Shown here piece after piece: positions 891-26,234 of a stretch of DNA of 32,000 nucleotides. A program made the translations under genes and the position numbers. How positions within the stretch are numbered: position 1 is the first letter of the stretch; the number at the start of each line of letters is the position of its first letter. This stretch comes from Opitutales bacterium. Its GTDB lineage: Bacteria > Verrucomicrobiota > Verrucomicrobiia > Opitutales > UBA9783. Below the pieces are notes generated by a model. The model had not been told where the DNA came from. It did not search any database and saw only the letters and a list, made by a program, of their open reading frames with translations. The stretch is from contig JAKSVZ010000007.1 of assembly GCA_024407725.1 (NCBI GenBank), positions 10,192-42,191 of the forward strand. The letters are read 5' to 3'.

Positions 891-2714
891 TTACTGCTTA
901 AATTCTGGGATATAGCGGCGTATAAAGGGAAGCACTTCCGCATCTGATTGAAGCGCTTGAGCCTGTTGTAAACAATCCAAGGACGAAAATTGCCCCAATG
1001 CTTCCTGTTTGAAGATACCAATCAAGGGGTTAGCCGTTAAGGTTACTTGTTCGGCATTGAAAACCAAATCCTCATGCAACTTTTCCCCTGGGCGCGGCCC
1101 TGTAAATACAATTTGAACATCAGTTCCAACGGTTAAATGATTGAGCTCAATCATCCGTTTAGCCACCTCCACTATTTTAACCGGTTGCCCCATATCCAAA
1201 ACATAAATAACCCCGCTTGCTTTTTTGAAAGTAAAGGCTTCCAAAATCAAGCTTACCGCCTCCGGTATGGTCATAAAAAACCGCGTCATATCCGGATGAG
1301 TAACCGTTAAAGGTCCCCCGCGCGCCAATTGCTCACGAAAGGTTTGCAACACACTCCCAGAAGAACCCAAAACATTGCCGAAACGCACCGCCACAAATTG
1401 AGTTGAATGGCTCACATGCTGCATTCCCATACACATCAACTCACAAAGGCGCTTACTGGCCCCCATAAAATTGTAAGGCTTAATGGCCTTATCGGTCGAA
1501 ATAAGTACAAAATGCTTCACTCCCAATTCGCATGCATAGCGCGCAAGCAATCCCGTACCGACCACATTGTTTTTAATCGCTACTAACGGCTGATCTTCCA
1601 ACAAAGGTACATGTTTATAAGCAGCCGCATGGAAAATAATATCCGGTCGGTAATGCGTTAAACATTGCTTCAAATCCGCTTCGTGCGTAATGTTTAACAA
1701 AACCGGTTCGCATGCATGCCCATTGCGCAATAAATCCTGCTGGATTTTGAACAAATTAAATTCCGAATGATCGATTAAAATCAATTGTTTGGGTGAACGT
1801 TCGCTAATTTGACGGGATAATTCACTGCCAATAGAACCGCCCGCGCCCGTAACACAAACAACCTGCCCTTCAAGCTCACGCTGAATACCGCTCAAATCCA
1901 ATTTAATAGGATCGCGAACCAAAAAATCCTCTACATCCAATTCGTGCAATTGGGTCGCATGAACTTCCCCTTTTAAAAAATTATCTGCCGAAGGAATATT
2001 AAAAATCTTCAAACGCAGAGCTTTCGCGCGCTCCACCAATTCTAAAAAGCGTTTTTGGGGTATTACTCCCGTAAAAATTACACCCTGAATGTTATATTTT
2101 TCGACCAAATCCTGCAATAGATCAGGCGAACCACAAACCGGCACTGAATGTAATTCCTTACCGAAGTACTTAGGGTTATCATCCAGTACAATGATCGGCT
2201 TAATTTTAAGGAAGGAGCGTTCCTTCAATTCTGCAATTAAATGCGACGTAGACTCATTGATACCAATCAATGCGACCCGAGTAACAAAGGGGGTTTTCGA
2301 TTCAGAATCAATTTCGACAAAATGTGCATGAATCAACCGTACGAATGCACGAACAAAGAACACAAAGAGAATTGAGAATAATAGATCCGATAAAATGACC
2401 TCGCGCTGTGGAATCCAATACGGGACTTGATAATACCGAAAGCACAACTCTCCAAAAGCAATGGTGGTTAGGCACGCAATGATTTTGGCCAAATCGGGAA
2501 AGCGAAAATAAGCGAATAAATTGCGGAATTCTCCCGCTGCGTATAATACGGCTACTTTTATCGATACAATCCACAAAGCACCCGTCCACATAATGGGCTG
2601 GATGTACCGCGGGAGCATGAAACAATATTTTATGTGATAAGCCAGCAGGAAACTACCCAACAAACACAGGTAGTACCCGCTGATCTTAATACATAAATTC
2701 AATAAATCTCTCAT
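891..2714 (-). CDS. Polysaccharide biosynthesis protein, CapD/PglF/WbpM-like membrane-anchored NDP-sugar 4,6-dehydratase
   Basis: 607 aa ORF. Hydrophobic N-terminal helices are followed by a Rossmann motif VTGAGGSIGSEL and HAAAYKHVP, typical of the Polysacc_synt_2 family. Confidence 0.8.
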   Translation of the reverse strand: MRDLLNLCIKISGYYLCLLGSFLLAYHIKYCFMLPRYIQPIMWTGALWIVSIKVAVLYAAGEFRNLFAYFRFPDLAKIIACLTTIAFGELCFRYYQVPYWIPQREVILSDLLFSILFVFFVRAFVRLIHAHFVEIDSESKTPFVTRVALIGINESTSHLIAELKERSFLKIKPIIVLDDNPKYFGKELHSVPVCGSPDLLQDLVEKYNIQGVIFTGVIPQKRFLELVERAKALRLKIFNIPSADNFLKGEVHATQLHELDVEDFLVRDPIKLDLSGIQRELEGQVVCVTGAGGSIGSELSRQISERSPKQLILIDHSEFNLFKIQQDLLRNGHACEPVLLNITHEADLKQCLTHYRPDIIFHAAAYKHVPLLEDQPLVAIKNNVVGTGLLARYACELGVKHFVLISTDKAIKPYNFMGASKRLCELMCMGMQHVSHSTQFVAVRFGNVLGSSGSVLQTFREQLARGGPLTVTHPDMTRFFMTIPEAVSLILEAFTFKKASGVIYVLDMGQPVKIVEVAKRMIELNHLTVGTDVQIVFTGPRPGEKLHEDLVFNAEQVTLTANPLIGIFKQEALGQFSSLDCLQQAQALQSDAEVLPFIRRYIPEFKQ

Positions 2715-2729
2715 TTAAGAGAGGAATGA

Positions 2730-4397
2730 TTAAGCATCCTTATGATAAACCTGATCAAAGGCATCGCTTAAGCTGGTCAATTCTTGTCCTGCCGGTATAG
2801 CATTCAAGGATTTAACCTCTTCAGAGAAGCGCGAATCATCGTACTTCAACGCCTTGGTCGACAAGCAAATACGACGCTCTTTCTTATCAATTTTAATGAT
2901 ACGAGCCTCGATTTCGTCTCCAACTTTATAGGTTTCCTTTAAGTTCTTACCTTGCAGATCTTCCATTTGAGCCATCGGGATGAATCCATCGATTCCTCCT
3001 TCAAAGCCTACAAACACACCACGTTCGATAACCTTAACAATCTTATTTTTAACGACTTTACCTACGTGATATAAGGTTTCAATGTCTTCCCATGGATCCT
3101 TGGTTAGCTGCTTAACGCCCAAAGAAATTTGATGCTTTTCGGTGTCCACGTCTAATACAACCGCTTCTACCTCATCGCCTTCCTTAAATAGATCACTGGG
3201 CTTATTAACTTTATGAGTCCAATCCATTTGGGATACGTGGATCATTCCATCAATCCCTTCTGCAAGCTTAACAAACACACCAAAGGGGGTTAAATTACAA
3301 ACCGTACCCTTTACACGAGCTCCCTTAGGATAATCATATTGAACGGTATCCCAAGGATTTTGGGTCAATTGACGCAAGCTGAGCAATAACGTTTGGGTAT
3401 CTTTATTAACCTCCACAACTTTAGCATCCACCTCATCCCCTTCGTGAAGCATTTCACTTGCCTTATGGAAGCGCTTGGTCCAAGATAACTCGCTCACCTT
3501 AATAAATCCTTCAAGACCCTCTGCAACCTTAACATAAGCGCCACGATCCAATACGGTAGAAACCGTTCCGTGAACCGTCATGCCAACAGGGAATTGTTGA
3601 TCCATATGTTCCCATGGGTTCTTCTGAAGCTGCTTCATACCAACCGAAATCCGTTCTTGTTCCAAATCGACTTCGATTACCATAACCTCAACCTCATCAC
3701 CCACTTTGAGCTTATCACTAGGACGAGCAATGCGCTCCCAAGAAATGTTGGTGATATGCAGGAATCCATCGATACCGTCGAGGTCAATAAAGGCTCCGAA
3801 ATCGGTAACGTTCTTCACGATTCCCTTGCAAACACAACCCACAGTCAGTTTGCTTAACGCTTCCTGACGCTTTTGTTTCCGATGGTCTTCAATCAATTCC
3901 CTACGTGAAACAACAATGTTCTTATGCGCGCGATTGATCTTGATAATTTTTACATCTACCGTTTGACCGATATACTGCTCTAAATTCTTAGGAGCTACCA
4001 CGTCCACATGAGAAGCTGGGCAAAAAGCATCAACACCGATATAGATAACCAAACCGCCATTGATTTTGGATTTGACCACTCCAGCTAACTCAGTGCCTTC
4101 GGAACATTTCTCCAAAATAATCTCCCAGTTCTTCTGTTGCTGCGCTCGGCTGTAAGATACCACCGGACGTCCATCGACTGATTCTACGCGATCCACATAA
4201 ACCTCAATCGAATCCCCAACCTTCATATCGTCCAACTGTAAAAATTCACTCGTTGGCACCAAGCACTCTGATTTTGCGCCGATATCTACGGTTACTCCAT
4301 CCTCGCGGATGCCGGTAATTGTTCCCGGAACAATACTATTGGCCTTTAACCGTTTAAAGGTGTCTGCATTCAACAGACGATCCATTACTTCTGACAT
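2730..4397 (-). CDS. rpsA: 30S ribosomal protein S1
   Basis: 555 aa ORF made of six tandem S1 OB-fold repeats with a recurring pattern (G..v.G.V......G.FV.l..gidG..h.S). Confidence 0.95.
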   Translation of the reverse strand: MSEVMDRLLNADTFKRLKANSIVPGTITGIREDGVTVDIGAKSECLVPTSEFLQLDDMKVGDSIEVYVDRVESVDGRPVVSYSRAQQQKNWEIILEKCSEGTELAGVVKSKINGGLVIYIGVDAFCPASHVDVVAPKNLEQYIGQTVDVKIIKINRAHKNIVVSRRELIEDHRKQKRQEALSKLTVGCVCKGIVKNVTDFGAFIDLDGIDGFLHITNISWERIARPSDKLKVGDEVEVMVIEVDLEQERISVGMKQLQKNPWEHMDQQFPVGMTVHGTVSTVLDRGAYVKVAEGLEGFIKVSELSWTKRFHKASEMLHEGDEVDAKVVEVNKDTQTLLLSLRQLTQNPWDTVQYDYPKGARVKGTVCNLTPFGVFVKLAEGIDGMIHVSQMDWTHKVNKPSDLFKEGDEVEAVVLDVDTEKHQISLGVKQLTKDPWEDIETLYHVGKVVKNKIVKVIERGVFVGFEGGIDGFIPMAQMEDLQGKNLKETYKVGDEIEARIIKIDKKERRICLSTKALKYDDSRFSEEVKSLNAIPAGQELTSLSDAFDQVYHKDA

Positions 4398-4493
4398 ATT
4401 ATTAAATCCTCACAAAAGAATTGAATCATTAATTCTTTTACCTTTAAACTTTGAGGAAAGTTCAAAGTAATAGCAAGTAATTTTATCGTAAAT

Positions 4494-8631: not shown

Positions 8632-9772
8632 CTAATGCTCAGCGGCGACCAACTCCTCAAAGGTATCACGATGAGGATACGCATCTAGAATCTTAAACGC
8701 ACGCAGGTTTTCGACACAACGCGCTTCGTATGCATCATAATTTTCTTTAGTTAACCGATGACGATCATGCTCAATACACCACGCCATATAACGGTTGATG
8801 TCGGGATGATAATGGGCTTCATCGCAATAATTCGCTAAATTGCCAACAAAATGGCAATCATGCCAACCGTAGATTTTAACATTTGGAATATCAGCACAAA
8901 CGGTAACTAGGTGGCGCCATAAGGAAAATAAGGCATCGCAATACTGAACTAACGACATTCTCTTTCCACAATCCATTGTGCACACCCTACTATAGGTAGT
9001 CCATGCATTAGGTGTTAATAAGATATAAAACTTGACCAATGGATTTTCTCGGATGACACGCAATATAGTGTTGTTGATTCGTTGATTCGTTGATTCGTTG
9101 AGTCGTTGAATAAGTATTCAACTTATAAACACTTTGTAAATATTGACAGTGTTTTGCAAAATACCCAAAACTTTGAGAGCAATAAGGAAACCAACTATGA
9201 ACCTCATTTAAATTATTCCATGTCCAAAAATGGCTATTATGTTGGGATACGAACCTATGAGTAATGCAGTAAAATGCAGCCAACGAACATATGGTTTTTA
9301 GATTAAATAAACACAAGTAAGGATGGTTAATATAAGGCTTTGCTGCTTCTAATGAAGAGTCTATGCCTGAATCAAGTAAAGATCGAAATGCGTCTATTTC
9401 TACAAAACAATGTTTTACTTTTTCGGTTGCCAAACCTTTTCTTAACCACATCAACTTCATTTGTAGACTTTGTCCCCCATTGCACAACTTCAGCATGCCT
9501 TTAGCCCCAACTGCTTTAACTAAATCGCTACCTTTGAAGTTCATCGTGTGCGAAGAACCTACCAAAATACTGTCGTAATCATTGCTTCTTTTGAAGTAGG
9601 TTTCAATTTGACCTAGATTGATTAAGGGTTGACTACCAAACCACAAATTCTTGTTCCACCGCGTCTCATGAAAAATATGATACGGATCTATGAGATACAC
9701 CATCAACGGCCCTATTGTCCAAAATAGGAGCGTGAAGATAAAAAAATACAGGATGTTGCGGCGAGAAGACAT
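8632..9772 (-). pseudogene. Membrane-anchored SGNH/GDSL-like protein split by a frameshift into two overlapping ORFs (9008-9772 and 8632-9063)
   Basis: The N-terminal ORF has a TM anchor and ILVGSSHT (block I-like). The C-terminal ORF carries CDEAHYHPD (DxxH block V-like). Both frames are open across 9011-9117, where an 8 bp tandem repeat lies. One extra repeat unit fuses the frames, as worked out by hand in the findings. Confidence 0.6.
9073..9110. repeat. 8 bp tandem repeat (GTTGATTC)x3, followed by GTTGAGTC and a partial GTTGAA
   Basis: Read directly: gttgattc gttgattc gttgattc gttgagtc gttgaa. The unit length is not a multiple of 3, and the repeat lies inside the coding overlap of the split gene. 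Confidence 0.9.
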
Positions 9773-9787
9773 AAGACCTATTCAAAG

Positions 9788-10216
9788 TTAATCCAATTCA
9801 GGATCCATCTGAATAAACCATATCGGTTCTTTGGATTTACACCATAAACGTTGTTCTTTAAAAACTTTCGCAGGAATTCGAGTACATGCTTCACTCAAGT
9901 TATTAACTGCATAGCGCCTGCCACTTTTCGACAAACGGAATGACTTTAAAGATTCCATAAGCTTATCCTGAACCGACTGAGGGGCTTCATCTGCAGGAAT
10001 TTGGAAAATCCAACAAGCCTTTGTAGCCATACCCTCATCCGACGATGATCCGACAACAACAAATTGCTTTTTAATCGGTTTTTGCTTAACTGCCTCTCGC
10101 TCATCAGCTTTATCTTCAGCAGCCGATTGAATTTCATCCAAAAGCTCACTCACAACCCCACTTTCTAGGTCTGAATGCCTTAAAATACGCTTAACCACTT
10201 CCAAATCTACTTTCAT
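9788..10216 (-). CDS. Hypothetical protein (142 aa), no recognised family
   Basis: Clean ORF packed tightly between the two SGNH-like genes on the same strand. It has an acidic N-terminal half. I recognise no motif. Confidence 0.45.
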   Translation of the reverse strand: MKVDLEVVKRILRHSDLESGVVSELLDEIQSAAEDKADEREAVKQKPIKKQFVVVGSSSDEGMATKACWIFQIPADEAPQSVQDKLMESLKSFRLSKSGRRYAVNNLSEACTRIPAKVFKEQRLWCKSKEPIWFIQMDPELD

Positions 10217-10246: not shown

Positions 10247-11476
10247 TTATATAGATATTTTTTTAGCTTCTCCAAACCATTGTTGATGAATAATACTAGC
10301 AATTCGCTGATTACCCGTTACCGAATGATGCCCGTATTTATCGACATAAAGACTTTGCAATTCAACATCATCTAAGGATTTCCAATAAGCATATAAATCT
10401 AAATAAGGTAAATTCAATTCAGCACAAATACTATCAAAAGCTGCACGATACAAAGCATGATTATCTTGCATATAACGAACATGCGTATAGGCAGGTAACA
10501 TTACACAATAAGGACGCCGACCTTTCTCCTGACATACATCTATAAAACGCTTTAATAGCGCACGCAATAGATCCTGTTGTGTTTCGTATAAGCCTTGCAG
10601 GTAATCATTTTTCTGCTGAAACGTTTTCAACAAATAAGGTTCGGCTTCCTGCAAAAAATGGTTAATGGCCATTGACCGATCTTGTTTACTGTCTGTTTTA
10701 ACACGCGTTGAAGCCAATAAGCACTTTAGCAAATCTCCATCTTTTATAACATATCCTAAAGCCGTTTTAGGCGCTTTTTTTAATTGGGTAAAAAAATAAG
10801 GAGCATTGCCATCCTGTTGCCGGAAAAAATCCTGATAGCGCTCCAAATGTAAAAAATCATTCGGAGATTGAAGAGGACTTTTTACCAATTTTAATGCACC
10901 ATCCGATAAAATGAAACGAGGCTTAACCGCTAAAACATTTCCTGGATTCGCATAATGCAACCAAACACTAAGAATTCGCTCAATAGTCCATGGAGTCAGA
11001 ATCATGACAACCGCACGAACCGATTCTGACAAATTTGTTGATTCCAAACGCAACAAAGCCTGATCCAAACCATAATTACCAACCCCATAATTAGTAACAT
11101 ACGATTGAGTAAACTGAGATAAATGATACTGGATCGTTTCCGTATCATTCACCTCACGGCACATACAAAAAGAATCACCAAAAGTTGCTATATAAGAATA
11201 CGCTGGAGCACCTGAAAAAGTACGACTCCCCTGATCATCAATCGAGTAAGTCGTGTTCCCTTGAAGCCCTATGTACGAACCTGTATTATCTCGATGATTC
11301 TTAACGGGATTTGGCTTCCACCCCAACTGCACATCGAACGTTTTGTATTTATTAACAATCGCTGCAGTTACTTTGGGACATGCTTGTAAAAACAAACCTG
11401 ATTTCAGAAGGAAAAAACGTACAACTCCTTCTAGGATCGCGCCAATTAACACAACACATCCTAAAAAAAACAACAT
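10247..11476 (-). CDS. Membrane-anchored SGNH/GDSL-like hydrolase or acyltransferase, putative
   Basis: 409 aa ORF with an N-terminal TM helix, ATFGDSFC (GDS block I) and a C-terminal DKYGHHSVTGNQRIA (block V-like). Family-level call only. Confidence 0.5.
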   Translation of the reverse strand: MLFFLGCVVLIGAILEGVVRFFLLKSGLFLQACPKVTAAIVNKYKTFDVQLGWKPNPVKNHRDNTGSYIGLQGNTTYSIDDQGSRTFSGAPAYSYIATFGDSFCMCREVNDTETIQYHLSQFTQSYVTNYGVGNYGLDQALLRLESTNLSESVRAVVMILTPWTIERILSVWLHYANPGNVLAVKPRFILSDGALKLVKSPLQSPNDFLHLERYQDFFRQQDGNAPYFFTQLKKAPKTALGYVIKDGDLLKCLLASTRVKTDSKQDRSMAINHFLQEAEPYLLKTFQQKNDYLQGLYETQQDLLRALLKRFIDVCQEKGRRPYCVMLPAYTHVRYMQDNHALYRAAFDSICAELNLPYLDLYAYWKSLDDVELQSLYVDKYGHHSVTGNQRIASIIHQQWFGEAKKISI

Positions 11477-11488
11477 ATGAAATCCTTA

Positions 11489-11575
11489 TGGTACCTGGAG
11501 AGGGGGTCGAACCCTCATTCTCGTGAAAGAACCGGATTTTGAGTCCGGCGCGTCTGCCAATTCCGCCATCCAGGC
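11489..11575 (-). tRNA. tRNA-Leu (anticodon CAA), long variable arm
   Basis: Reverse complement GCCTGGA-TG-GCGG...CCGGA-CTCAAAA-TCCGG-(variable arm)-GAGGG-TTCGACC-CCCTC-TCCAGGT-A-CCA. Confidence 0.9.
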
Positions 11576-14156: not shown

Positions 14157-16604
14157 CTAAGATTGCATTTCTTCCGGTCCTTGAGCGACCTTACAGAGTC
14201 TAACCAATTGATCGTTGGGCTCTAGGCTAATCAACCGCACTCCTTGTGTGGTTCGACCGATCTTACGCACATCTTTGATAGGGCAACGAACTGCCTGACC
14301 GGATTGGGTAAAGAGCATCATTTCATCTGCATCCTCCACTACAATCGCCCCTGCAACCTCAACCTGCTTACCCTCTTTACCTTTAATCGCGATGATTCCC
14401 TTCCCTCCTCTGTGTTGTACTCGGTAATCCGAAAAGTCGGAACGCTTTCCTTGACCATTGATGCCAGCAATCAATAACGAACAGCTTGGGTTCACAATGC
14501 ACAACGCTTGTACGACATCCTGTTCATCCAAGTCAATCCCGATAACGCCTCGGGTATCTCGACTTAACTGTCGGCATTCTGATTCATGGAAGCGAATCGA
14601 TAGCCCTTTGCGGGTAATCAGCATCAATTCGTTCTGTCCATTGGTTAAATCCGCTCCTACGATCAAGTCATCCTCATCCACATTCATGCCAATCAAACCG
14701 GACGAACGGTAATTTTGGTAATCGGACAAAGCAGATTTTTTAATAATTCCATTTCGGGTTACCATCACCAACGAATGGACATCGTCAAAGGACTGGAAGC
14801 ATAAAGTCGCAGCCACTACCTCGTCGGATTTTAAATTCAAAACGTTGATCAATGCACGCCCCTTAGAAGTACGTGAGCCCTCAGGAATATCGTATAGTTT
14901 CTTAATATACACGCGGCCATTCTGCATCACGAACATAATAAAATCGTGTGCATTAGCGGTAAATGAATGCTCAATAAAATCCTCTTCGTACTGGCCAGCA
15001 CTCAATACTCCTTTGCCACCTCGCTTTTGGGAACGGAAGGCTTCCATGTCGGTCCGTTTAATAAATCCTTTATGGGATAACGTAACGCAGCAACCAACAT
15101 TCGGAATCATATCTTCCATCCGGAATTCTGCCTCATCAGGGATAATGCGCGTTTTTCGATCGATGCCGTATTTTTCGCGTTCCTGTAAAAATTCTTCTTT
15201 TAATACCGACAACAACTTGGTATCGCTCGACAAAATCAAACGCAGCTCTTCAGCGGTTTTTAGCAACGCTTCGTATTCTCCATCAATTTTTTCGCGCTCC
15301 ATTCCGGTTAATTGATACAAGCGCAAATCCAAAATGGCAGTCGCTTGCGTAACCGACAACTGGTATTTCTTAATCAAGGCTGACTGTGCTTCTTCACGAG
15401 AGCCTGACCCACGAATGATTTTTACAAAATCATCCAAATGATCGATGGCGATCTTGTAACCCTCTAGGATATGCAGCCGTTCTTCCGCTTTTTGCAAACG
15501 GAATTGGGTACGTCGGGATACAACTTCTCGACGATGCTCCAAATAGCATTCGAGCATCTCCTTGATGTTCATTTGCTTAGGTCGTTGCTGATCCAAAGCT
15601 AACAAAATGACACCAAAAGAGGATTCTAACGGGGTTAATTTGTACAGTTTATTGAGCACCACGCGCGCAATTTCCCCTCGCTTTAGTTCAATAACAATGC
15701 GGGTTTGCTCATCGGATTCATCCCGTAAATCACTGATTTCGGTTAAAATCTTTAGGTGCACCAACTCCGCAATTTTGGTAACTAAAGTGGCGCGATTAAC
15801 CGCGTAAGGAATTTCAGTGATAATAATTTGGTCTTTTCCATTATCATTTTCCTCAATATGAGCCTCTCCGCGGATATGGATAATACCACGTCCGGTGCGC
15901 AAATAACTCGAAATGCCACTCAATCCAACCACCGTACCGCCTGTTGGGAAATCGGGTCCCTTGATAACCCCCATTAAATCGTCAACAGTGGCGTTTTGGT
16001 TATCGATCAACAAAACCAACGCATCCATCAATTCGCGAAGGTTGTGCGGAGGAATATTGGTGGTAATACCCACTGCAATTCCGGTTGATCCATTAAGAAG
16101 CAAATTGGGTAAAGCAGAAGGTAATACGGTTGGTTCTACCGTACTTTCCTTATAGTTCGGAATAAAATCAACGGTATTCTCATCGATATCCTTCAGAAGC
16201 TCTTCAGCAACATCCTTCAAGCGGCATTCGGTGTAACGATACGCAGCAGCCAAATCCCCATCGATCGAGCCAAAATTCCCCTGTGGGTCGATCAACGGAT
16301 GATTCATCACCCAATCCTGACCTAAACGCACCAAGGCATCATAAACCGAACTATCGCCATGCGGGTGGTAGTTTTTGAGCACTTCTCCGACAACACCTGC
16401 GCATTTATCGAACGGCCGGTTGTGTACCAATCCCTCACGGAACATAGCATAAAGGATACGCCGATGAACCGGTTTAAACCCATCGCGTACATCGGGTAAT
16501 GCACGGCTTACGATAACGGACATCGAATAGTCGATATAAGCCGACTTCATGATGTCATTAACATTCGTATCAATTAAAAACTCTTTGTCTGTACTCATGT
16601 GCAA
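14157..16604 (-). CDS. gyrA: DNA gyrase subunit A
   Basis: 815 aa ORF with SRALPDVRDGFKPVHRRILYAM and the active-site AAYRYTE region. Confidence 0.97.
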   Translation of the reverse strand: MHMSTDKEFLIDTNVNDIMKSAYIDYSMSVIVSRALPDVRDGFKPVHRRILYAMFREGLVHNRPFDKCAGVVGEVLKNYHPHGDSSVYDALVRLGQDWVMNHPLIDPQGNFGSIDGDLAAAYRYTECRLKDVAEELLKDIDENTVDFIPNYKESTVEPTVLPSALPNLLLNGSTGIAVGITTNIPPHNLRELMDALVLLIDNQNATVDDLMGVIKGPDFPTGGTVVGLSGISSYLRTGRGIIHIRGEAHIEENDNGKDQIIITEIPYAVNRATLVTKIAELVHLKILTEISDLRDESDEQTRIVIELKRGEIARVVLNKLYKLTPLESSFGVILLALDQQRPKQMNIKEMLECYLEHRREVVSRRTQFRLQKAEERLHILEGYKIAIDHLDDFVKIIRGSGSREEAQSALIKKYQLSVTQATAILDLRLYQLTGMEREKIDGEYEALLKTAEELRLILSSDTKLLSVLKEEFLQEREKYGIDRKTRIIPDEAEFRMEDMIPNVGCCVTLSHKGFIKRTDMEAFRSQKRGGKGVLSAGQYEEDFIEHSFTANAHDFIMFVMQNGRVYIKKLYDIPEGSRTSKGRALINVLNLKSDEVVAATLCFQSFDDVHSLVMVTRNGIIKKSALSDYQNYRSSGLIGMNVDEDDLIVGADLTNGQNELMLITRKGLSIRFHESECRQLSRDTRGVIGIDLDEQDVVQALCIVNPSCSLLIAGINGQGKRSDFSDYRVQHRGGKGIIAIKGKEGKQVEVAGAIVVEDADEMMLFTQSGQAVRCPIKDVRKIGRTTQGVRLISLEPNDQLVRLCKVAQGPEEMQS

Positions 16605-20504: not shown

Positions 20505-21959
20505 ATGGCCATCCAAAATAATTCTCAAGTAAGCAATCCCCAGATTGAACAATTCAACCAACCCAATGCAAACGTTGGTAATAATTCCATCGCTATCGCT
20601 AACAATGCAATTATTAAAAACGTAAATTCATTAACGACGCAATCGTTGGCTAACATGCACGAAGCAGATAAAACACGCTTGGTAACGCTTACCCATAATA
20701 CAGAAGGCAAGAGCTTTTTCGGACGTATTCAACAAATCGCCATTAATATCGCGCACAACATTAAACATTTAGTATTTAAGGATTTTCAAGCGAGCGCTAT
20801 ACATGTGCTCAACAACAGCACCGCCGAACTGACTTTAATGGGGGAACAAATCCTACGTTCAAATATAGAGTTTTCACAATTGGAAAAAAAGGATTTGAAT
20901 AAAACTCTAATCAAGACCGCTAACCAAACCTATAATACCTTAAAGCAAATCATAGGTTTTCAAGATGGAGATTTTAAATGGGTAGGAGGAACTCTATTCA
21001 AATCTAATTTCGTTATTAACAACAACAATCACTTAACCTCAAAATTAAACGAGCCACTTAACAAAGCAATTACTGATTGCTTAAGTGCTTTAGACGGTCT
21101 CCAACAGGTGATTAACAGAGAGCATAGCAAAGCAACAAACGCTTCAAACTCTACCAATAATAACGTTCAAAACACCCCCATTGAGCAACCTAAGGCAGCT
21201 GAACCCGAAGCGATCAAAGAAGAACCCGCTCCATCCAATCTTCAAAATCCTGAACCTCAGTTGAAAAATGATTCTGAAGTAAAACAGCCTGTTCACTCAG
21301 AACCTATCCAAAACGAACCTATTCCTCAATCGGACGATTCATTCGAGGGAATGATTGATACGCTTTATAAACACATACCATCCGGTACGATCGAGTCTAA
21401 AGAAGCATTAATTTCGTTATTAACCAAGAGCAGTGATTTAGAAGGAACCCTCCAACAACTGGGGATTAATACCTCCTCATTACCTGACAATCTCATGGAT
21501 GATTTACAAAATGAAATAATTTTGCAAAGTATTATCGCTAGCTCCCAAGCATCTTCTTCCGAAGAACAACCCGTTCAGCCTTCAAATCCATCTACAAACG
21601 GGGTAGCTTCACCTATTGAAAACCCAAATCTTCCAGTGGAAGACTCAAGTTCGCCAGTAGTAGAAAACAAGTCCTCAAACAACAATTCATCAGGGAAAGT
21701 CACCAATAATAAGGGGAAAACCGGAACGAATCCGTCAGTGAATAAATCCAAAAAGGCAAAGAAGAAAACCCCTAGTTATTTAAAATCAACCCAAGCAACT
21801 CGTAATAAAGTTTCGACTAAAAAGACCCATGCAAGCGAAAAAGCATTTGCAAAAGTCTCGGAATTCAACATCGACAGAAGCAAGTTAGACCGCAAAGGAG
21901 GCCTAACCCACGATGAGCCTTATCAAGCACCCAATGCAAATCCTTTTGAGAGGAAGTAA
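20505..21959 (+). CDS. Hypothetical Asn/Gln/Pro-rich protein, paralog 2, with a Lys-rich C-terminal tail
   Basis: 484 aa ORF homologous to 19402-20439. It also has a Pro/Glu-rich low-complexity insert and a basic tail (..NKSKKAKKKTPSYLKSTQATRNKVSTKKTH..). Confidence 0.7.
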   Translation: MAIQNNSQVSNPQIEQFNQPNANVGNNSIAIANNAIIKNVNSLTTQSLANMHEADKTRLVTLTHNTEGKSFFGRIQQIAINIAHNIKHLVFKDFQASAIHVLNNSTAELTLMGEQILRSNIEFSQLEKKDLNKTLIKTANQTYNTLKQIIGFQDGDFKWVGGTLFKSNFVINNNNHLTSKLNEPLNKAITDCLSALDGLQQVINREHSKATNASNSTNNNVQNTPIEQPKAAEPEAIKEEPAPSNLQNPEPQLKNDSEVKQPVHSEPIQNEPIPQSDDSFEGMIDTLYKHIPSGTIESKEALISLLTKSSDLEGTLQQLGINTSSLPDNLMDDLQNEIILQSIIASSQASSSEEQPVQPSNPSTNGVASPIENPNLPVEDSSSPVVENKSSNNNSSGKVTNNKGKTGTNPSVNKSKKAKKKTPSYLKSTQATRNKVSTKKTHASEKAFAKVSEFNIDRSKLDRKGGLTHDEPYQAPNANPFERK

Positions 21960-24974: not shown

Positions 24975-26234
24975 ATGTTAGATATTCACTATTTTCGTAC
25001 GTCCTTTGACGAAGTTTGCCGTCGATTGGCCACCAAACATTTTACGTGCGATTTACAACAAGTTGCCCAATTGGATAAGGCACGCGTAGAACAACAGCAA
25101 GCATTTGAAGCCTCAAAAGCCGAACTGAATGCCTTAAGTAAAAACCTAGGTAAATTGGACCCAAAATCCCCTGCATTGGCCCAAGCTCGGTAGCAAGCAA
25201 CCGCCCTTTCTAAAGTTACCAAAGAAAAAGAAGCCGCGTATAAGCAGGCCGAACAAGCATTTAAAGAAACTTGGCTCAGCATTCCGAACGTACCAGCTCC
25301 ATCCGTTCCCGTCGGCAAAAGCGATAAGGATAACGTTGAGCTGTATCAATGGCATCCACAAAACGAGGATTTTTCCCACGCCTGCCCTCATTACGATCTG
25401 CCCAATTTCGAACAAAAAATCGACTTTTCGCGCGGTTCTAAAGTCATGGGTGCTGGCTTTCCGTTTTATGTCGGCGAACTCGCCTATTTGGTACGCGCGT
25501 TAATTGCATTCTTTTTGGATTCTGCCCGCAAAAACGGTTATTTGGAAATCCTACCGCCCCTATTGGTTAACGCCGACAGCGCATTGGCAACCGGTCAGCT
25601 GCCCGATAAAGAAAACATGATGTATCGCACGGACGAAGGCTATTTAATTCCAACCGCCGAAGTTCCCATCACGAATTTTTACCGCAATGAAATTTTCACC
25701 GAAGCAGATTTGCCCATCAAACGTTGCGCTTATTCCGCCTGTTTCCGCCGTGAAGCTGGCAGTTGGGGTAAAGATGTACGGGGATTAAACCGACTGCATC
25801 AGTTCGACAAAGTAGAATTGGTTCAATGGGTTTTGCCACAGGAAAGCACCCAAGCGTTGTTAACATTAAGGTCCCACGCAGAAGATTTGCTTAAACAATT
25901 GGAAATCCCCTACCGCGTGCTAGCCATTTGCACCGGAGATATGGGCTTCCCCCATGCCGAACAATACGATTTGGAGGTCTGGGCAGCCGGACAACAACGT
26001 TGGTTGGAAGTATCCAGCTGCAGCTGCTTTACCGATTTTCAGGCAAGGCGCGCCAACATCCGTTACAAAACGAGCTCGGGCAACCTAGAATTTGTTCATA
26101 CCCTGAATGGCTCTGGACTCGCTATTCCACGCGTATTAGCAGCTATTCTTGAAAACAATCACCGCGGCAATGGCGAAATTAGTATTCCATCGGTTTTACA
26201 CAAATGGTTACCGATGACTAAAATCCATTTTTAA
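24975..26234 (+). pseudogene. serS: Seryl-tRNA synthetase reading frame interrupted by one in-frame TAG at 25191-25193
   Basis: ORFs 24975-25193 and 25446-26234 are in the same frame. The stretch between them translates without further stops to QATALSKVTKEKEAAYKQAEQAFKETWLSIPNVPAPSVPVGKSDKDN..., the canonical SerRS arm/core junction. The total is 420 codons, a normal SerRS length. Confidence 0.85.

Follow-up and report, generated by a model that had tools for sequence, protein, structure and literature searches.

A putative octanucleotide-repeat contingency locus in a DltD-like, SGNH-fold gene of a metagenome-assembled Opitutia genome

Introduction

Simple sequence repeat (SSR) contingency loci are textbook features of host-adapted pathogens such as Haemophilus, Neisseria, Campylobacter, and Helicobacter, and the lic, lgt, and lex genes are further examples of SSR-driven, phase-variable genes that modify glycans. 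To our knowledge, such loci have hardly been documented in uncultured commensals, and searching the literature for SSR-driven phase variation in Verrucomicrobia or Akkermansia, we found no described case. Here, we analyze a stretch of 32,000 nucleotides of contig JAKSVZ010000007.1 from an Opitutales bacterium (assembly GCA_024407725.1), hereafter called the window, in which a single gene is broken in two at an octanucleotide repeat. An original prediction made without database searches had proposed phase variation at this site. Our follow-up indicates that the gene is probably a slipped-strand contingency locus encoding a DltD-like protein of the SGNH fold, and that it is OFF in this assembly. 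The mechanism is that of a classic slipped-strand contingency locus; what is new is the gene family, the phylum, and an unusual, translated 8-nt unit.

By analogy, the closest functional counterpart would be oafA of H. influenzae, which is given as an O-acetyltransferase gene with a tetranucleotide repeat inside its open reading frame (ORF) where PMC9558356 cites Fox et al. (2005). The poly-G capsule and lipooligosaccharide genes of Campylobacter are likewise phase-variable (PMC8437040). As in oafA, lic/lgt/lex, and the Campylobacter genes, a non-triplet repeat within an ORF, here that of an enzyme that putatively decorates surface glycans, would toggle the reading frame; tract length also differs between strains, and several paralogues per genome appear to be switched. 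Unlike these systems, the window gene has an 8-nt unit, which is rare (classic units have 1, 2, 4, 5, or 7 nt). Its product is an uncharacterized SGNH/DltD-like protein rather than an AT3 enzyme or a glycosyltransferase, and its host is an uncultured Opitutia commensal. Octanucleotide tracts have precedents. The SSR 5′-GCATCATC precedes hmw1A and hmw2A in the promoter region of H. influenzae biogroup aegyptius (PMC3309571), and octanucleotide tracts have been accepted as a criterion for phase variation in surveys of hsd genes (PMC7383803). The hmw1A/hmw2A repeat shares with ours the unit length and a copy number that varies between strains. However, it modulates transcription from the promoter, whereas the repeat described here is translated (RINESTNQ per three units) and would act by frameshift.

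Pairs of an MBOAT protein and a membrane-anchored SGNH-like protein provide the closest enzymatic comparison: DltB/DltD act in the D-alanylation of teichoic acid, AlgI/AlgJ/AlgX in the O-acetylation of alginate, and PatA/PatB in the O-acetylation of peptidoglycan. The window gene product resembles the SGNH-like partners in that an N-terminal anchor leads into an SGNH-like domain of some 350 aa, in which a Ser and Asp-x-x-His are conserved. In three related loci, the gene directly upstream encodes an MBOAT, and distant relatives show weak ALGX matches. The best structural match is DltD itself, which combines an N-terminal membrane anchor (here helix 2–28) with an SGNH-like domain of about 390 aa. 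The protein has no significant sequence match to DltD or AlgX/AlgJ, and the window gene stands on its own among housekeeping genes. Neither a dlt nor an alg operon is present, and dltA- or dltC-like genes lie beside none of the family members examined. The protein may therefore work like DltD, yet it is not a member of the DltD family, given the missing dlt operon, the missing sequence match, and a Verrucomicrobium as host.

Results

The only SSR of at least 20 nt in the window is a tract of period 8 with 4.6 copies, 96% matches, and the consensus GTTGATTC, as identified by Tandem Repeats Finder (Table 1). Its plus strand reads GTTGATTC three times, then GTTGAGTC, then GTTGA. The coding strand reads t-CAACGAC, three copies of TCAACGAA, and TCAAC, that is, three perfect units between one variant unit and one partial unit. 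This three-unit pattern had no match in 100 dinucleotide-preserving shuffles and is confined to this gene family in about 200 kb of fetched loci; long homopolymers are absent from the window. The tract is thus a tandem repeat inside an ORF with a unit length not divisible by three. As originally predicted, two ORFs overlap in different minus-strand frames, and the repeat lies in the sole interval that is open in both. The upstream frame ends at a TAA (9008–9010), the downstream frame is closed on its 5′ side by a TGA (9118–9120), and both frames are therefore open exactly between these stops.

The 254-aa ORF contains the N-terminal transmembrane helix, a DP motif (D29, P30), the GSS(74)HT nucleophile motif, and a variable middle domain, and, past the repeat, it closes with about 20 out-of-frame residues. 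The 3′ part encodes NNTILRVIRENPLVKFY and the following residues up to a conserved C-terminal block with N300 and D320-x-x-H323, and translation reaches it only upon the gain of one unit or the loss of two. When the tract was edited in silico, one additional unit produced the reading STNQRINNTILRVIRENPLVKF across the junction and a single ORF of 382 aa, and the removal of two units produced a single ORF of 374 aa; after all other unit changes from −3 to +3, the product stayed truncated. The two unit changes originally proposed to fuse the frames do so, although the 382-aa product of the added unit is slightly shorter than the 385 aa or so then estimated.

Table 1. Features of the window around the split gene (positions count from the first letter of the window)
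Feature	Position	Strand	Basis or remarks
Octanucleotide simple sequence repeat	9073–9109	−	Tandem Repeats Finder, direct reading; proposed slippage site
5′ ORF, OFF-state product, 254 aa	9008–9772	−	ORF list, in silico editing, alignment, model
3′ ORF, 143 aa	8632–9063	−	ORF list
3′ part of the split gene, +1 frame	8632–9072	−	In silico editing, alignment; dN/dS
Interval open in both frames	9011–9117	−	Stop positions; repeat inside
142-aa ORF, no family match	9788–10216	−	Upstream of the split gene; same position in L002, L005, L017, and L019
409-aa ORF, sub-threshold GDSL/SGNH matches (E 2e-4)	10247–11476	−	Beside tRNA-Leu
CapD-like gene	891–2714		6 kb from the split gene, beyond S1, DUF2062, enolase, and Usp

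In other assemblies, paralogues and orthologues of the gene carry a (TCAACGAN)n repeat of 3 to 12 units at the identical codon position; the unit is shared at this site by loci L002, L003, L013, L005, and L004. The syntenic orthologue L002, on a 90-kb contig, carries 11.9 perfect copies of TCAACGAG and is split into 264 and 111 aa; its flanking genes (TGT, the 142-aa ORF, Usp, enolase, and DUF2062) are syntenic with those of the window at 86–90% DNA identity. Two split paralogues were also found: L003, directly downstream of an MBOAT gene, has 3.9 copies of TCAACGAG, and L013, downstream of ACP/KAS genes, has 3.6 copies of TCAACGAT. In the window, L002, L003, and L013 alike, unit number alone toggles between a truncated and a full-length product in silico. 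A change of one or two units restores an ORF of 374–402 aa, and each of these copies therefore has no lesion other than the repeat frameshift. At its eighth base, the unit has A in the window, G in L002 and L003, and T in L013; this base is uniform inside each array available as DNA. Such uniformity per array, combined with differences between loci, is expected from repeated contraction and re-expansion.

Other loci carry altered forms of the tract. L004, the L013 orthologue in the metagenome-assembled genome (MAG) UBA3869, carries a 9-bp derivative, CTCAACGAG, which always remains in frame and leaves the gene intact. Its 4–5 copies (L004 6655–6698) encode LNELNELNELN, so that a frame shift is impossible and the gene is effectively "locked ON". 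UBA3869 also has a syntenic orthologue of the window gene, L005; this copy is dead, with an internal stop and a deletion, and its repeat consists of three degenerate units. Only decayed remnants (LNDLSTQ.LNES) persist in the intact paralogues L014 and L015, and the intact paralogues L007 and L016 have no repeat. A third orthologous repeat count was sought through close GyrB relatives, and none was obtained, as the L017 and L019 contigs end before the repeat. L017 ends (at 16310) about 100 nt short of it, and L019 ends (at 11538) at the start of the family gene. Such breaks in two independent assemblies would fit an ambiguous assembly graph, caused either by heterogeneity of the repeat or by the N-terminus that is conserved among paralogues.

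Different phases of one allele lineage were recovered from the protein collection. P0016, which represents the L013 allele, belongs to a 90%-identity cluster whose members come from different samples and are 91–94% identical to one another. P0016, P0297, and P0304 have a 27-nt tract and the tail ADVRFNDSTIQRF followed by IENFSI and a stop (RFNDSTIQRF, then IENFSI), and they are OFF. P0298, identical to P0016 across the 214 preceding residues, has a 43-nt tract, two units more than P0016; its tail is RFNDSTIQRFNDSTI followed by Y and a stop, which is OFF in the other frame. P0300 has a 59-nt tract, four units more than P0016, and reads through RFNESTNQRINDSTIQRFND into LLKIFRFNPEVKFY to give the full 394 aa, which is the ON form. 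The three tails correspond exactly to the three reading frames of the L013 right flank; therefore, all three phases, ON included, exist for one allele lineage. Repeat numbers were thus compared across strains, a check suggested at the outset, and the variation seen favored the prediction: 4.6 units in the window versus 11.9 in L002, and tracts of 27, 43, and 59 nt (OFF, OFF, and ON) in the P0016 cluster. This length polymorphism was seen at the orthologous site and at a paralogous locus, not for the identical window allele. The nearest relative of the window allele, P0292 (MJ218_03945, Opitutales bacterium), is almost identical to it in the middle domain; its tract exceeds that of the window by one unit and is in frame through the repeat.

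The ratio of nonsynonymous to synonymous substitution rates (dN/dS) was examined over the 82 C-terminal codons past the frameshift. Between the window and nine relatives, dN/dS was 0.05–0.08 at a dS of 0.7–1.2, and low values were also obtained in comparisons with other OFF copies carrying the repeat. Purifying selection downstream of the frameshift is strong, and the out-of-frame part is therefore maintained as coding while the repeat is present. A reversible switch would fit this maintenance better than old pseudogenes.

A search of the fused product against 5.8 billion proteins returned a small family. Full-length homologues (P0003–P0007, 381–396 aa) cover 100% of it at 55–57% identity, and their alignment is unbroken over the junction. 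The minus strand of 8632–9772 accordingly reads as one gene of about 380 codons, in agreement with the initial proposal of a single gene split at the repeat. A library-wide profile search placed it in a wider superfamily of about 2,000 representative clusters of 350–400 aa. A scan of JGI metagenomes for the family yielded only two N-terminal fragments (L011 and L012), and a scan of viral contigs yielded no match.

Modeling of the fused protein using AlphaFold2 with a 140-sequence alignment predicted one domain with a mean predicted local distance difference test (pLDDT) score of 93.3 and a predicted template modeling score of 0.92, and the blocks at the junction scored 89–94 without a dip. The confident fold across the junction is what the original prediction had proposed to check. 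A run with a 17-sequence alignment was poor (pLDDT 58.6) and was discarded in favor of this model. The model has an N-terminal transmembrane helix (residues 2–28) and a flavodoxin-like alpha/beta/alpha arrangement in which five parallel strands (68–72, 93–97, 121–125, 250–255, and 301–305) alternate with helices, as in the SGNH/GDSL fold, albeit with weak match scores. In a Foldseek search of the PDB, SGNH/GDSL proteins made up almost all of the top 50 matches. The DltD structures 3bma, 6o93, and 6pfx were among the best matches and aligned near full length (354–406 columns), and small SGNH enzymes reached target-normalized TM scores of 0.5–0.6. Additionally, D29, P30, G72, S74, N300, D320, and H323 are invariant or nearly so in 140 superfamily members (G72, S74, D320, and H323 being at least 90% conserved or invariant), and all seven are kept in the fused window product. 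The sequence thus contains the block I GxS Ser and the block V Asp-x-x-His of SGNH proteins. The anticipated membrane-anchored SGNH-type protein is borne out by the helix and the DltD matches, although their E values are weak (6.5e-3 or higher). The family is best described as uncharacterized, predicted to be SGNH-like by fold and motifs and DltD-like by architecture.

The family is mosaic. In the family alignment, residues 25–100 are 67% identical on average and residues 286–378 are 87% identical, with only 21–30% identity in the middle (101–285). Although the flanking genes of the window and L002 are 86–90% identical in DNA, the middle of the gene (window 9113–9472, L002 5301–5680) is unalignable, which suggests allele replacement or cassette exchange between paralogues. 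The MJ218_ locus tags (P0011, P0012, P0013, P0292, P0330, and P0335) indicate at least seven paralogues in one Opitutales MAG, which is probably the source of the window; MJ218_03930, _03935, and _03945 lie on one 6.7-kb contig, apparently in tandem. Some members are split at non-repeat sites (P0292, P0013, P0311/P0310, and P0306/P0307), in part at A- or T-runs, with breaks after VIRE, after NVK, and in VKFFLIL. Such splits may stem from assembly errors in certain contigs or represent further lesions or switches.

The gene order around the split gene is gyrB, gyrA, a 402-aa ORF without a family match, TGT, tRNA-Leu, the 409-aa ORF, the 142-aa ORF, the split gene, Usp, enolase, DUF2062, and ribosomal protein S1. 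The split gene thus stands among housekeeping genes, and the surface-glycan cluster first envisaged in the window was overstated. None of the ORFs scanned encodes the FkbM methyltransferase named as a neighbor, and the scan likewise gave no obvious candidate for a large membrane partner protein such as an MBOAT; the 484-aa ORF at 20505–21959, considered as a candidate, is unrelated to the MBOAT of L014. The CapD-like gene is real, but it stands far off behind housekeeping genes. The supposed second SGNH-like neighbor, the 409-aa ORF, reaches only a sub-threshold GDSL match, and a paralogous relationship with the split gene was ruled out (hhalign probability 0.2%). The window, L005, and L017 all have this ORF, whereas L002 has in its place a 117-aa ORF on the opposite strand (4050–4403); the difference appears to be an indel between close relatives. 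The 142-aa ORF is possibly co-transcribed with the split gene. A 155-aa ORF precedes the family gene in L007 and L016, where both follow dnaA, and homology between these two small ORFs was rejected on comparison.

Family members elsewhere show a different context. An MBOAT gene (Pfam E 1e-36) lies immediately upstream in L003, L014, and L020/L021, and there is no adjacent MBOAT in the window, L002, L004, L007, L013, or L016. In L020/L021, which are more distant (Puniceicoccales), the pair lies inside a polysaccharide cluster with UDP-glucose dehydrogenase, an epimerase, a family 4 glycosyltransferase (GT4), and methyltransferases, and GT2 or GT4 genes flank L014, L015, L016, and L022. DltB/DltD, AlgI/AlgJ/AlgX, and PatA/PatB likewise combine an MBOAT with a membrane-anchored SGNH-like partner, and we therefore infer that the fused protein would transfer or trim an acyl group on an extracytoplasmic glycan. 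One paralogue site (L003 2883–6120, L007 5397–9021) lies immediately upstream of phage-like genes for a T4-type large terminase and a Mu-type portal.

The relatives of the window place its host apart from the Chlamydiae-like bacteria suggested earlier. Named carriers of the family are Opitutales, Puniceicoccales, and Verrucomicrobia bacterium UBA3869, and GyrB relatives include named Verrucomicrobia/Opitutia at 67–70% identity and metagenomic ones at 95–96%. By these sequence comparisons, the host is an uncultured Opitutia bacterium of the Verrucomicrobiota, within the Planctomycetes–Verrucomicrobia–Chlamydiae (PVC) group. The sample names alone (yak rumen RGIG, TONG22) suggest a ruminant gut source. 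In the window, the seryl-tRNA synthetase gene (about 24975–26234) carries an in-frame TAG at 25191–25193 on the plus strand, where its two closest relatives (L018 and L017) have CAG (Gln); the window reads AQAR-stop-QATAL, and the relatives read AQARQQATTL. This TAG in an essential gene could be a consensus error, a minority variant, or a case of suppression.

Discussion

The window gene is likely a slipped-strand contingency locus. In the proposed mechanism, (TCAACGAN)n units would be gained or lost by slippage during replication, which would put the catalytic C-terminal third with its DxxH motif in or out of frame. In the OFF state, a 254-aa stub would be made that keeps the transmembrane helix and the Ser motif and lacks the Asp and His; the ON state would be reached by one extra unit or two fewer. 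The ON product would be a membrane-anchored extracytoplasmic SGNH-fold enzyme of DltD-like architecture. Its most likely role, by analogy, would be that of a transferase or esterase partner of an MBOAT acyl-donor protein in the O-acylation of a surface polysaccharide. From the tract comparisons, we infer that the window allele would switch reversibly within a population; the activity and glycan target of the fused protein are presumed from its fold, motifs, and relatives.

Several observations weigh against this reading. On the enzymatic side, neither the fused protein nor 17 close homologues matched Pfam or NCBIfam, and 49 distant relatives gave sub-threshold matches only (ALGX in 3 of 49, DUF1574 in 2 of 49). 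Profile searches of PDB sequences returned chance matches only, and no significant match to a curated SGNH/GDSL clan sequence model was found. The Foldseek scores are weak, with a best E of 6.5e-3 and query-normalized TM scores of 0.26–0.36, and no ORF in the window matched MBOAT. On the side of switching, the window array is short (three perfect units) and interrupted, and slippage in it may be infrequent. None of the four perfect 8-mer arrays read as DNA (window, L002, L003, and L013) is ON. P0300, the sole ON form that bears an 8-mer tract, is known only as a protein sequence, and no ON version of the exact window allele was found in the 5.8-billion-protein collection. P0292, in frame through the repeat, is frameshifted again at an A-run a few codons downstream. 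Moreover, the same-site orthologue of the UBA3869-like sister lineage (L005 6001–7087, L017 15747–16310) is dead, with a stop after GVLKL, a partial deletion of the middle domain, and a degenerate three-unit repeat.

Several of these points would also suit an irreversibly inactivated gene, namely a young pseudogene of a redundant multigene family that was frameshifted by the repeat and is now decaying. The sister-lineage orthologue is clearly dead, the closest paralogue P0292 bears an extra frameshift, the array has only three perfect units, and 0 of 4 arrays are ON; with at least seven MJ218_ paralogues, losing one copy would be cheap. We nevertheless consider this explanation unlikely. The frameshift is the sole lesion in four independent repeat-bearing loci, and the conserved catalytic residues are all kept. 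On the out-of-frame part, dN/dS stays at 0.05–0.08 even between two repeat-bearing OFF copies, and one allele, that of the P0016 cluster, occurs in three phases, ON included, in different samples. Furthermore, random phase predicts that two-thirds of the copies are OFF, which makes 0 of 4 ON unremarkable (p about 0.2).

An assembly or sequencing artifact, in which the true tract is in frame and the consensus miscounts its units, is very improbable. In its favor, the contig comes from a metagenome assembly, an in-frame TAG interrupts the essential seryl-tRNA synthetase gene of the window where relatives have CAG, some family members elsewhere are split at homopolymers, and the L017 and L019 contigs break at or just before the family gene. 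However, the tract spans 37 nt, well within one short read, and an 8-nt miscount is atypical of base-calling error. Four loci, which come from independent assemblies and differ in unit count, are frameshifted at this repeat, and an identical 254-aa product is recorded on two contigs, although these records are possibly not independent. Programmed recoding, in which ribosomal frameshifting or transcriptional slippage on the repeat would yield the full-length protein, scarcely merits consideration: both frames are open through the repeat and the repeat is conserved in the family, but the loci would need shifts in opposite directions (+1/−2 nt in the window, L003, and L013; −1/+2 nt in L002), the variable length of the DNA tract itself explains the ON and OFF forms, and no recoding signal is known for the repeat unit, no search for slippery sites or stimulatory structures having been made.

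With the contingency locus as the preferred reading, a broader scheme can be tentatively considered. Gut and rumen Opitutia might possess a combinatorial code of surface acylation, with at least seven DltD-like paralogues per genome, several of them switched independently by the octanucleotide repeat. The hypervariable middle would serve acceptor specificity, the MBOAT donor would be shared, and the conserved termini would act as recombination handles for the exchange of middle cassettes. If this were true, ON/OFF switching would be coupled with allele replacement.

The finding is solid and useful, albeit mechanistically unsurprising. Metagenome data alone give a consistent case for a contingency locus in gut and rumen Opitutia, in a structurally DltD-like family whose superfamily comprises about 2,000 representative clusters. 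It also carries a warning for annotation: "split" or "truncated" members of this family would be switch states, not junk. If confirmed, the locus would provide a concrete marker for following phase states in metagenomic reads, and it would mean that commensals diversify the acylation of their surface glycans stochastically, presumably against phage or host immunity.

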